The notes under the pieces: generated by a model
Database searches by the model: none
What the model was told of the DNA's origin: nothing
The model's input: the letters and a program-made list of their open reading frames with translations, nothing else
Part shown: piece after piece, positions 3,343 to 6,300 of the stretch
Numbering within the stretch: the first letter of the stretch is position 1
How the letters are laid out: every line of letters starts with the position of its first letter
Made by a program: the position numbers and the translations under genes
NCBI GenBank assembly: GCA_045805065.1
Contig: JBJMMA010000176.1
Span: forward strand, 1-26,891
Length of the DNA stretch: 26,891 nt
DNA from: Bdellovibrionia bacterium
GTDB lineage: Bacteria; Bdellovibrionota; UBA1018
Reading direction: 5' to 3'

Positions 3343-6300
3343 CACATCAATTTCTCTCTCAGATTTTCGGAGATGCATTTGCTCGAAGCCTGATCCGACT
3401 TCCGCCACGTTTCTCCACGTTCAAAAGCCTTGCGGAGGTTTTTAGCTGTTGGATCAGCTCCACGCGCTAGTCGGCGCAACTCGGGATCATCCTTCCATCG
3501 GGGCTGACTGAGGACATAATTGAGATCCGACTCGAGCATTCCGTAAGGGCGCTTCACGATAGTCTCAAGCCATTCCGGACGATCCTGTGCCCGAGGTGGA
3601 GTAAGAAATGTATAAGCAATCGCTCTATCGGCTGTTCCCTTTTGAAGCAACTTTTCAATCCACTCAGGATGCTTGTCCCATTCGGGACTTGTCATAAAAC
3701 TAAAGGCAGTGAGGCTATCCATAAGCCCATGCTCAATGAGCGAAGAAATCAACTGAGGATGAGATTGCCAATGAGGTTGATTGAAAACGTACTTCTTTAA
3801 AGTGCCTTTTGTATAGCTCTTATGAATGAGTTTCTCCAGAAGCTTCGGATGACTTCCCCAATGAGACTGCGAGAATACATGTTCCGCAAGTGGATCGTAA
3901 TATCTACTGTCTCCTGTTTTAAACAAATGCTCAATCCACTCGGGATGATTAGCCGCACTGGGTTTGGAAAGCACATTTTCGATAATCAAACGATTGATGC
4001 TAAAATCATTCCTCCGAAGAAACGTTAACACTAAGTCTCCGTAGTCCACCCAATGATCTTGCGAAAGCACGTGTTCAATCACTTCTCGATCAATGCTCGT
4101 ACCCTTGTTCATCAATTTTTGGAGGTATTCTGGATACTTTCGCGACACCGGCATCGCGAACCATTCCTTAAGTACAGCCGAAGCGGTCAGTTTTTTTACC
4201 CTTTGAACCTCGGCCCCCACGATCTGCCTAATCTGTTCAATTTCTTCGTTGCTTGAGACCTGGAGTTTCGCTCCAATGCGGCGCCTTAACTTCTCCAAAA
4301 TAGCGCCGTCACTGGCTTTGAATTCGTTTTGCGCAAGCAACTTAAAATACTCAACGGGACTCACATTGAGGCTCTCAGGAATCACTTTCAATGCCGCTTT
4401 ATTTGTTACCAAGATGTAGTCGCCCTGATTTGCCCGATGAAAATCAGAGCCTTCGCGTGCCTGAGGATCAAGTCTGAAGCGAATCGTCAGACCTGTGCCC
4501 ACCGCTCCTTCTCGACCTACCTTAGTATAAAATCCATCACCAAATGCCGCGCCCTCACCTTCAAATCCTTCGCGAGAGATCAAAACGTTGGGATCACCCG
4601 TGTGAGCTCTTGTGATGCTCTCGTAAGCAAGGAAGCTTTTGGTCTCATGTGCAACGGTATCCAGACCCAGCTCTTTTGCGGTTTTTCCTGGTCCTTGGCC
4701 AATCGGTTTTGTTCTCAGTGGTTCTTTACTCATCCACCAAGCCAAGGACTCCGCCGTTTTGACATCACCTTTGAAGTCCTGAAGCTTCTTCCTTAGACCA
4801 AGCTTTTCAAGTGTGTCCCACGCGTACTCGATATTTACGGCGTTTTGAATGAGCTTCTTGCCGTTCTTTTCGATCCATTTTGCGACATAGTCATTTTTAG
4901 CCGTCTGACTCAGATCGAATTCTTGAATGATTTTTTTGATGAGTGCGAGATCCTCTGGCCTAATCTTCAGCTCATACTGAAAGGCTTTCGTGAGAAAGCG
5001 AATCGCCGACACAATCGGAGGGTTACGTCCTTCCTTAGCGAACTTTGTCGTTTCGTGCTGTGTAGAAAAGTAATAGTGAAGAGCTCCGTCGTGAACATCC
5101 TTGAGAAAATGAGGCTCTTTAGAATTCCAGTCTCTTACATCTCTCACGGCCAACTCCCCTGATCTAGGCTGAGTGATCTCGATCATTCCCGTGGAGTTAG
5201 AATCCGTGTGCTGATTCATGAAGTCGGGATTATTTAAAATTGCCTGCTTATCTCCCATGTCTTGAGTCAGAAGACGAACTTCCCATGCCGTCTTGTTACC
5301 CTGGAGGTGAGGATATTTCGCCTGAAGCGCCGCTTGAAGTTTCGCAGCCTGTTCAGGATTGCCATCGATGACGATGTCTAAATCTTGGGTTGAGCGGTAG
5401 ATATTTGTATAGTCGTAATCAAAGCGATCTTTCTGAAAACGCGGATCACCTTTCTCACGCAGCATGTCCCATTTCACATAATGGGCATATCCAGCCGCAG
5501 TTCCACCAAAAAGCCATGCCCGCACTCCAAGCTTCGAGGCCTCTTGCTTGATGAACTTAAACTCTTCGACGCGACTGAGTCGAAACCCAATTTCACTCTC
5601 CAAAGATTTTAATGACGGAGTTGACTGAGAAACATTCACCTCGACTTTTGGCTCATGCGAAAGAGACTTTTCTGTGCCAGTATGAACCGTGCTGTTCTGC
5701 AGAAGTTCCATTTCGAGTGCAGGTTTTTCTTTCGGCGAAAGCTTAACTTCTTGCGCAGGCGCTGCTTCCGCCTTGGGTTCAACCTCAGGTTTCGATTTCG
5801 CTACTTCACGTGGAGTTGGATCCGAGATTGCGCCTTTTAGCTCAAGCGCGATTAAAGCTCTTTTTGCGCGATTGGATTCATAAATGGCATTGAAGAAAGC
5901 AATATTGGCTGGCTTACTCTTGATGTCCTTGACCATCAGATCAAAAGCGCTCGACGAAGCTTGAGCTCCATCGCGAAGAGCTGTGAGCTTCTTGACCAGA
6001 ATGTCCTGAAGCTCGGATGTTTTTCCTGCTTCATAGAGCTTTAGCTCTGAGGCGCTCAGAGGAACTTTAAGTTTTCCATACTCCGAGTCAAACGTCGCGA
6101 AATGCAGAACTGCCGGAGATCCGGGACTGGTTTCTTTGACGTATTGAAATGCCCACGGCTTTTTCTCGTGGATGAGTGCAAGAAAGTGAAAAAGCTGAGA
6201 GGTCAGGCCTTGCGCCACTTCCTCGCCATGTTGAGCAACTTCTCGAATCAGTGACAGATTGCTTGCGATTTTCAATCCCGCGTTTTTATTCCCGAGGAAC

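Follow-up and report, generated by a model that had tools for sequence, protein, structure and literature searches.

Class-II nucleotidyltransferases (NTases) are cytoplasmic housekeeping enzymes of RNA 3' ends. The NTase fold and the ADP-ribosyltransferase (ART) fold are also used in the modification of antibiotics, by ANT-type and Arr-type enzymes, respectively. The Bdellovibrionota are known for predation, and their killing effectors are poorly known. Here we describe a family of genes from this phylum in which an NTase is joined to an ART-like domain, starting from two paralogues in a 26,891 nucleotide stretch of a Bdellovibrionia bacterium (GenBank assembly GCA_045805065.1, contig JBJMMA010000176.1), referred to below as the window. 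Both paralogues lie on the reverse strand, gene 1 (P0001) at 3342..6950 and gene 2 (P0002) at 1414..3342, with 55% identity across an alignment of 598 residues. Each encodes a putative signal peptide, a class-II-type NTase head and neck as judged from a structure model, a small domain that probably belongs to the ART superfamily, and an array of repeats. The folds are known; new as far as we searched are an exported class-II NTase without its template, its obligatory fusion with an ART-like domain of minimal size, the arrays of repeats and the expansion in Bdellovibrionota.

The reading which we favour, tentatively and at a little under an even chance, is that the family is a secreted single-chain two-enzyme effector using nucleoside triphosphate (NTP) and NAD+ in a target cell. 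It is favoured because both folds use cytosolic nucleotides (NTP and NAD+), yet the proteins are exported, a contradiction for which Sec-exported exotoxins acting in another cell are the known precedent.

The NTase-like head and neck are encoded at 2377..3231 in gene 2 (P0002 residues ~60-344) and, placed by its homology with the domain modelled for gene 2, at 4764..5618 in gene 1. An AlphaFold model of P0002 residues 55-500 was made with an alignment of 72 family members, and the resulting 446-residue core is confident (predicted local distance difference test, pLDDT, 91.8; predicted template modelling score, pTM, 0.91). Searching the PDB with Foldseek gave 30 matches at E<=1e-3, the best with an E-value of 1.6e-5 and a probability of 1.00 over ~275 columns. 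The top matches listed are class-II tRNA nucleotidyltransferases (4wby, 4wc2, 1vfg, 3h37, 5hc9, entries beginning with 3wf, 6qy6), followed by the E. coli poly(A) polymerase 3aql. VIA, which is independent of Foldseek, found 3h37_A at Z 11.4 (212 aligned residues, root-mean-square deviation 4.3), 4wby_A at 11.3, 3wfo_A at 10.9, 1miv_A at 9.9 and 3aql_A at 9.6, with TENT5B (7.0) and minimal, MNT-type NTases (5.0-6.0) at lower scores. In the ESM Atlas, the structure rows for the model of this protein that carry a family name are PF01743 clusters at TM 0.52-0.57. A weak Atlas lead was the phage anti-Gabija protein Gad2.

As modelled, the region is a polymerase beta (pol-beta) NTase head and neck of the class-II (CCA-adding / poly(A) polymerase) type, and it shares this architecture, a pol-beta head with a helical neck, with the class-II tRNA NTases and the bacterial poly(A) polymerase (PF01743; 4wby/4wc2/1vfg, 3h37/3h39, 1miv, 3aql). 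A preliminary description, made from the sequence, had proposed an exported domain of this kind at 4900-5560 and a second copy at 2520-3160, corresponding to P0001 residues ~464-683 and P0002 residues ~84-296, and the fold matches bear that assignment out. The non-canonical poly(A) polymerases TENT5/FAM46 have the same NTase head and helical domain (Foldseek E 2.4e-3 to 8exe_A; VIA Z 7.0 to 6jyj_A), but this match is weaker than that to the class-II tRNA NTases, and TENT5/FAM46 are eukaryotic, cytoplasmic and without an ART domain.

At the sequence level, the hidden Markov model (HMM) of PF01743 gives no match to the family, unlike to the class-II enzymes; Pfam and NCBIfam together, at E<=1, yield just an irrelevant DUF1462 at 0.16. 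PDB sequence searches with the protein and with the family profile left the NTase part without a match. Aligning the NTase region of the family to 29 class-II enzymes of the same phylum with hhalign gave a score of 25.8 (P 0.012). With a broader family alignment the score was 27.5 (P 0.006), co-linear over 200 columns and with the motifs in register, against 13.5 (P 0.51) for a reversed-template control.

The motif order of the class-II enzymes is given, in the excerpt available of PMC2910056, as motif A (DxD), a flexible loop, motif B (RRD, ribose recognition) and motif D (EDxxR, the amino-acid template). Motif equivalences for the family were taken from the hhalign register and the inter-motif spacing, and are thus based on alignment rather than on structure superposition. 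In this register GG43-44 corresponds to the class-II GG, QD84LD86IV to DxD, WE118VR to the third carboxylate strand, VR164D165 to RRD, FLKD179V to motif C, E201-G202-(R)-N-P-P206 to E-D-x-x-R and AIR212F to A-V-R-F. GG, DxD and a third carboxylate thus follow one another in the family as they do in the class-II enzymes, and by alignment they are joined by a probable xRD at motif B, D at motif C and the A[IV]RF helix ending motif D, at matching spacing. The family differs in an insert of ~27 residues between GG and DxD, a spacing of ~40 as opposed to ~12 in class-II enzymes. Every motif quoted in the preliminary description (WLFGGTAA, QDLDIV[IV]DG, WEVR, LKDV..G.[LI]HY, AIRFLTKAFQY.LKI, NQHTDSNST and EGRNPP/EGRNIP) is present in both paralogues, in order and at the coordinates given there. 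The key residues of gene 2 are D138, D140 and E172; in gene 1 they are GG 482-483, D523 and D525 (codons 5384-5376) and E557 (5282-5280), followed within 4764..5618 by NQHTDSNSTG, VRD, EGRNPP and AIRFLTKAFQY.

Conservation was counted over 263 aligned family rows, using the non-gap rows at each position; the rows are partly redundant, as open reading frames (ORFs) of the own genome are also database entries. G43 and G44 are kept in 259/259 rows, D84 and D86 in 260/260, and E118 is E in 249 and D in 11 of 260. This conservation indicates that the metal-binding core is intact, as far as sequence can tell, and the retention of the catalytic carboxylates that had been noted for the two paralogues holds across the homologues. 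D165 is D in 256 of the 260 rows, with R in 221 and K in 29 at position 164, and D179 is kept in 258/260. N204, R212 and K216 are found in all 260, and in AIRFLTKAFQ the R, K and Q are present in 260, 260 and 259 of 260, respectively.

Motif D is not kept. In the profile alignment the E, D and R of EDxxR fall on E201, G202 and P206, giving E/x-G-x-N-P-P in the family; position 202 is G in 254/260 rows and position 201 is E in only 139/260. By this alignment, the Asp and Arg with which CCA-adding enzymes template C/A are replaced. The proposal that the templating motifs had been exchanged thus stands for EDxxR. For RRD it does not: both the profile alignment and the spacing make it more likely that this motif is kept as V-R164-D165, aligned at low confidence and without the first Arg, than that NQHTDSNST has taken its place. 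Instead, the loop NQHTDSNSTG probably sits at the flexible loop between the third carboxylate and motif B, which is variable in class-II enzymes and conserved in the family: Q141, D144 and S147 are the same in every non-gap row, and S145 and G149 are also listed as invariant.

The NTase would most likely still act on a nucleic-acid 3' end with a changed nucleotide choice, and we think an RNA 3' end the most likely acceptor. The preliminary description had suggested tRNA-end poisoning, protein NMPylation or signal-nucleotide synthesis as candidate activities. We think it very unlikely that the NTase instead modifies protein side chains with a nucleoside monophosphate (AMPylation or NMPylation) or produces free nucleotides, whether signalling or aberrant. 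Such an activity would fit the loss of the base template and of the RNA-holding body and tail, the MNT-type minimal NTases are among the lower fold matches (Z 5.0-6.0), and the invariant new loop (Q141, D144, S145, S147, G149) could form a new acceptor site; the best fold matches, however, are RNA 3'-end polymerases by a clear margin.

The tRNA-binding body and tail of the class-II enzymes are absent from the family. After the neck, which ends at model residue ~290, follow a small alpha/beta domain at model residues ~296-425 and then the 30-residue repeats. Neither this domain nor the missing body and tail, the C-terminal repeats or the roughly 26-fold expansion in the genome had been part of the preliminary description. 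The small domain is encoded at 1972..2361 in gene 2 (P0002 residues ~350-479; H383, S407, R408, E414, Y423, D451) and at 4359..4748 in gene 1 (AHET, ISR, GE, GDGFYT, DF, N), the fold evidence for the latter coming from its paralogue gene 2.

When the whole model was compared by VIA, the small domain matched diphtheria toxin, PARP domains, Tpt1, MbcT, RES and Tne2 at Z 4.4-5.7. Modelled alone (pLDDT 91.2), it matched 90 of 48,161 chains at Z>=2 and 11 chains at Z>=5, with the values starting at 5.8, 5.5 and 5.4; at the top were 7k7b_A (5.8) and 9ld3 (5.5), with PARP domains at ~5 and Tpt1 at 5.0. The best 50 of the 90 chains are almost all of ART type, covering PARP, diphtheria-toxin homologues, tRNA 2'-phosphotransferases, DarT, ParT and RES/MbcT, as well as the toxins pertussis toxin, ExoS, SpvB and ExoA; a few titles state no fold. 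Foldseek with the isolated domain ranked PARP16 and PARP10 in the PDB at a probability of 0.2-0.3 and PARP-domain proteins in BFVD at E 0.03-0.06. The structure rows of the Atlas for this domain include ART-PolyVal, ADPrib_exo_Tox and DarT clusters at TM 0.45-0.56, while the Atlas feature search gave no usable match. On these models the domain probably belongs to the ART superfamily. The Tpt1/KptA family of tRNA 2'-phosphotransferases itself (PF01885) was found in 0/201 genomes of the phylum, in a search whose control found it in E. coli, Deinococcus and Methanosarcina.

The invariant set of the ART-like domain consists of H329 (AHET, first strand), S353-R354, E360, G367-x-Y369 (GDGFYT) and D397-F398, with H329, S353, E360 and Y369 in 260/260 rows and R354 in 259/260. 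E420 is near-invariant (242 E, 8 D). The domain model has H329 and Y369 on two strands, 37-42 and 78-83, and from their order these residues may be equivalent to the His and Tyr of the toxins of the H-Y-E clade. The family resembles the H-Y-E-type ARTs (the diphtheria-toxin group, PARP, Tpt1/KptA) in having, as modelled, a small split-sheet domain whose first strand bears an invariant His, with GxGxY on a strand further along. Unlike them it lacks a sequence or HMM match, a significant Foldseek match and a fixed catalytic Glu, has its own invariant S-R, E and D-F, and is much smaller than the catalytic domains of diphtheria toxin or PARP.

Because the core model has a pTM of 0.91 and both domains are covered in 150/150 of the representatives among the matches listed, the NTase and the ART-like domain form one unit. 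Two sets of relatives dissect this unit naturally. In one genome (G103), three proteins of 1146, 1169 and 1228 residues keep the NTase motifs (GG, QDVDL, WD, QHSDSLSLG, GRNPEI) and carry a different sequence where other members have the ART-like domain. In another (G286), a relative of 624 residues (L114:1710-3584, reverse strand) has a decayed NTase, with GG changed to GE and both the DxD and the loop lost, and retains the ART-like motifs H, SR, GE, GNGYYT and DF. This protein represents a naturally occurring pseudo-NTase. Since each module is found without the other, each is kept by selection on its own account. The three NTase-only relatives (G103:C27:6500-24500, L113) flank a protein of 1525 residues that combines two AAA+ modules (AAA_2, AAA, ClpB_D2-small) with an M41 peptidase domain at its C-terminus.

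These forms bear on the possibility that just one of the two domains is an enzyme. The NTase could be the sole one, adding nucleotides to RNA or tRNA 3' ends of a target cell, or removing them by pyrophosphorolysis, much as MenT does, with the ART-like domain standing in for the body of the CCA enzyme as a non-catalytic module that binds nucleotides or RNA ends. The full metal-binding set is invariant and the nearest folds all act on tRNA or RNA 3' ends, the ART-like domain has no fixed catalytic Glu and a fold match that is only moderate, and MenT toxins extend tRNA acceptor stems according to the excerpt available of PMC10435456. The same excerpt describes the MenT / AbiEii-type toxins as pol-beta-superfamily enzymes that are proposed to harm the cell via nucleotidyl transfer to tRNA ends. 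Compared by description, those toxins are cytoplasmic, small and paired with an antitoxin, whereas the family is exported, of class-II type and without a recurring partner. We consider this explanation unlikely, as the ART-like residues H, Y, S, R and E match the NTase carboxylates in their invariance and survive in the relative with decayed NTase motifs, while the body and tail that hold the tRNA in class-II enzymes are missing and the C/A-templating residues are gone.

Conversely, the ART-like domain could be the only effector enzyme, acting by ADP-ribosylation or NAD+ breakdown, beside an NTase which is a regulatory, NTP-sensing or structural pseudo-polymerase. This would follow a well-known design, that of the Sec-exported ART exotoxins, and the variant that has lost GG and DxD of the NTase with its ART motifs kept agrees with it. 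Nevertheless, it seems quite improbable, given carboxylates that are kept in 260/260 rows of the main family, a ratio of non-synonymous to synonymous substitution (dN/dS) of the NTase as low as that of the ART domain, and the existence of NTase-only relatives with kept motifs.

Export, the other part of the original proposal, is well supported by the N-termini. All complete copies in the own genome have an N-terminus with an n-region, a hydrophobic core and an AxA-type site, which we read as a Sec-type signal peptide. Among 230 database homologues with the full core, 195 have a hydrophobic 12-mer ahead of it, and the core begins a median of 44 residues from the N-terminus. In gene 2 the putative signal peptide is at 3262..3342 (MVYRSLLAFLIVALAFQFIGMPEAAFA|QE) and in gene 1 at 6801..6872, where the hydrophobic stretch NVLVILGVLLAQSIGFA is followed by A-D; both were read by eye.

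Under the two-enzyme effector reading, the NTase site would use NTP and the ART-like site NAD+, giving two nucleotide-using active sites on one chain. The effector would work only where these cofactors exist, inside the prey or target cell or in its leaking contents, as do the Sec-exported ADP-ribosylating exotoxins. Specificity for a target or a location would come from the variable repeats, and the ~26 old, selectively maintained paralogues would amount to a diversified arsenal. That either domain is catalytic, that the protein is secreted past the periplasm and that it enters a target cell are steps that we infer, as is the substrate. The functional analogy is to the AB-type exotoxins, which share the order of signal peptide, enzyme with a cytosolic cofactor and variable non-enzymatic part. 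In contrast to them, the family has no recognised receptor-binding or translocation domain, carries a second (NTase) enzyme and is multi-copy, and its producers are Bdellovibrionota bins, not pathogens. A more specific version, which we regard as rather improbable, has the NTase and the ART-like site working together on a single target, so that, for instance, a protein or an RNA end would be marked with ADP-ribose and a nucleotide, with the repeats of the paralogues directing the same chemistry to different prey or host targets.

The proteins might also be no weapon at all. A periplasmic or surface enzyme of the producer could process nucleotides or nucleic acids released by prey, or modify a small molecule, for example an antibiotic, or part of the envelope. 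Export is indicated to the periplasm only, ANT(2'') and rifampin ART are among the weak fold matches, and no immunity gene is present. We give this explanation little credence, since NTP and NAD+ are normally unavailable in the periplasm, and ~26 paralogues, variable repeats and a patchy spread (19/301 genomes) fit housekeeping poorly.

The repeats follow the core and are 30-32 residues long, with the pattern ..VLSxPxWxxHPE[LW]..L..G.. and 0-8 copies per paralogue by regular expression. Gene 1 has six such copies in a C-terminal helical repeat region at 3471..4178 (period ~30-32 residues), and gene 2 has three at 1417..1791 (period 30 residues). The length after the core varies from 36 to 1381 residues in 230 homologues, with a median of 457. 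PDB sequence searches with gene 2 and with the family profile gave weak DARPin/ankyrin-like and designed-helical-repeat matches to the repeats, and some homologues carry precomputed Ank or HEAT_2 labels. A repeat-only relative was seen beside a family gene, as a 682-residue ORF (G000:C222:5507-7552, reverse strand) that matches just the C-terminal repeat region (33% identity over 478 residues). Gene 1 in addition has an N-terminal extension of ~390 residues (5631..6800), for which we found no Pfam or NCBIfam match, no PDB sequence match below E 0.99, and no second copy in its own genome or among ~300 fetched homologues. Long N-terminal extensions (>150 residues) also occur in 6/230 homologues.

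A word-indexed search gave 440 proteins at E<=1e-3, and an exhaustive profile search gave 690 representative clusters out of 1.84 billion, 618 of them at 1e-10 and 494 at 1e-30. As all the representatives listed carry both domains, the profile stops short of the canonical class-II enzymes, which are very numerous. Stand-alone shorter forms were considered as a separate group and rejected: the 62 matches of this kind are mostly fragments on short contigs or labelled partial, and form no such clade. PADLOC gave no family at E<=1, and PHROGs gave a single phrog, a tail-fibre match at E 0.4. We found no account of an exported class-II NTase-ART fusion or of this family in the literature searched, a search for which most subscription titles were outside the scope.

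The own genome (4.22 Mb in 262 contigs, 94% complete) contains 27 matches in 26 ORFs, seven of which are cut by contig ends. They are partly arranged in arrays of four (contig C247), three (C188 and C7) and two copies (the window and C213), three or four copies are divergent at ~35% identity, and the family occupies ~1.5% of the genome. The canonical class-II enzyme is represented by one PF01743 gene, located elsewhere. For the 171 pairs of the 19 main paralogue cores, the median proportion of synonymous differences is 0.78, i.e. saturated, and that of non-synonymous differences is 0.16-0.19. The median dN/dS is 0.066 for the NTase (23/171 pairs computable) and 0.093 for the ART domain (50/171). 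Saturated synonymous sites together with low non-synonymous divergence and low dN/dS indicate that the paralogues are old duplicates under purifying selection.

Matches at E<=1e-10 were found in 19/301 genomes of the phylum, scattered over many families, with high first-look counts of 44 in a genome of the same genus and 26 in another (G027). Database species-representative genomes contributed 62 loci, all from metagenome bins, labelled as Bacteriovoracaceae, Pseudobdellovibrionaceae, Bdellovibrionia, Bdellovibrionota, Oligoflexia or generic (Delta)proteobacteria. The sequence is present in four DNA runs, all from one soil-metagenome study.

No recurring neighbour was found among 114 ORFs flanking family genes, and there are no small ORFs between the genes of an array; hence there is neither an immunity-like partner nor a dedicated secretion gene. 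A polymorphic-toxin or toxin-immunity reading was therefore rejected, as no immunity gene is adjacent and the conserved part is the enzyme while the variable part is the repeats.

The longest ORF of gene 1 encodes 1202 residues, with an uncertain start codon. That of gene 2 spans 1414-3408 (664 residues); its start is most likely Met23, the ATG at 3342-3340, giving 642 residues, and the database form (P0003) has the same 642 residues at 100% identity. From this start, the ATG of gene 2 overlaps the TGA of gene 1 by one base (TGATG), and the two genes are therefore probably translationally coupled. Downstream of gene 2, a 193-residue ORF at 905-1486 (reverse strand) overlaps its 3' end by ~70 nucleotides; it has an inner signal-peptide-like start, MKLSLCILLFTLPLLSAQ, and no Pfam match, and no similar ORF lies beside other family copies. 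Directly upstream of gene 1, at 7003-7758 (reverse strand), lies an ORF of 251 residues whose N-terminus is hydrophobic and for which Pfam gave no match. Further away are a gene for a GAF-domain membrane protein at 7911-9761 (forward strand) and, at 10490-14760 (reverse strand), a TamB-like gene (PF04357, E 4e-8) with an Omp85-family gene (PF01103, E 2.5e-13), a pair that looks like an outer-membrane translocation and assembly module.

Several observations count against the proteins being two-enzyme effectors. The tie to class-II NTases is weak at the sequence level, with an hhalign probability of 4-6% and no Pfam match at E<=1. The ART assignment is based on Z values below 6; Foldseek with the isolated domain found nothing at E<=1e-3 in the PDB or BFVD (best E 0.31 and 0.021, respectively), and for this domain neither profile searches of PDB sequences nor Pfam and NCBIfam HMMs gave a match. 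The catalytic Glu is not conserved at the canonical ART position: the residues ahead of the FVVV strand include no acidic one at a fixed place, and the 113/142 pattern-parsable sequences that do have one within 3 residues of this strand have it at varying positions. The invariant D397 and E360 and the near-invariant E420 are alternative candidates for the catalytic acidic residue. The Sec signal points to export as far as the periplasm, and no secretion system or delivery domain was identified. Moreover, the family was not found in 282/301 genomes of the phylum searched and no cultured strain or predator is among the 62 loci, and for these reasons the tie to predation is drawn from taxonomy. 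RNA runs with the sequence are not listed, which is uninformative either way.

To our knowledge, no effector of prey shutdown is known from the lineages of this family. As far as we searched, the family occurs in uncultured Bdellovibrionota alone, and none of Pfam, NCBIfam, PADLOC and PHROGs detects it. A class-II NTase that is exported, lacks its template and is joined to an ART-like domain would widen the uses of the fold, and a concerted action of its two sites, if true, would make the family a predator's counterpart of the AB exotoxins. For the Bdellovibrionota it provides a concrete candidate effector family, together with a defined biochemical problem, namely which nucleotide is transferred and to which acceptor.

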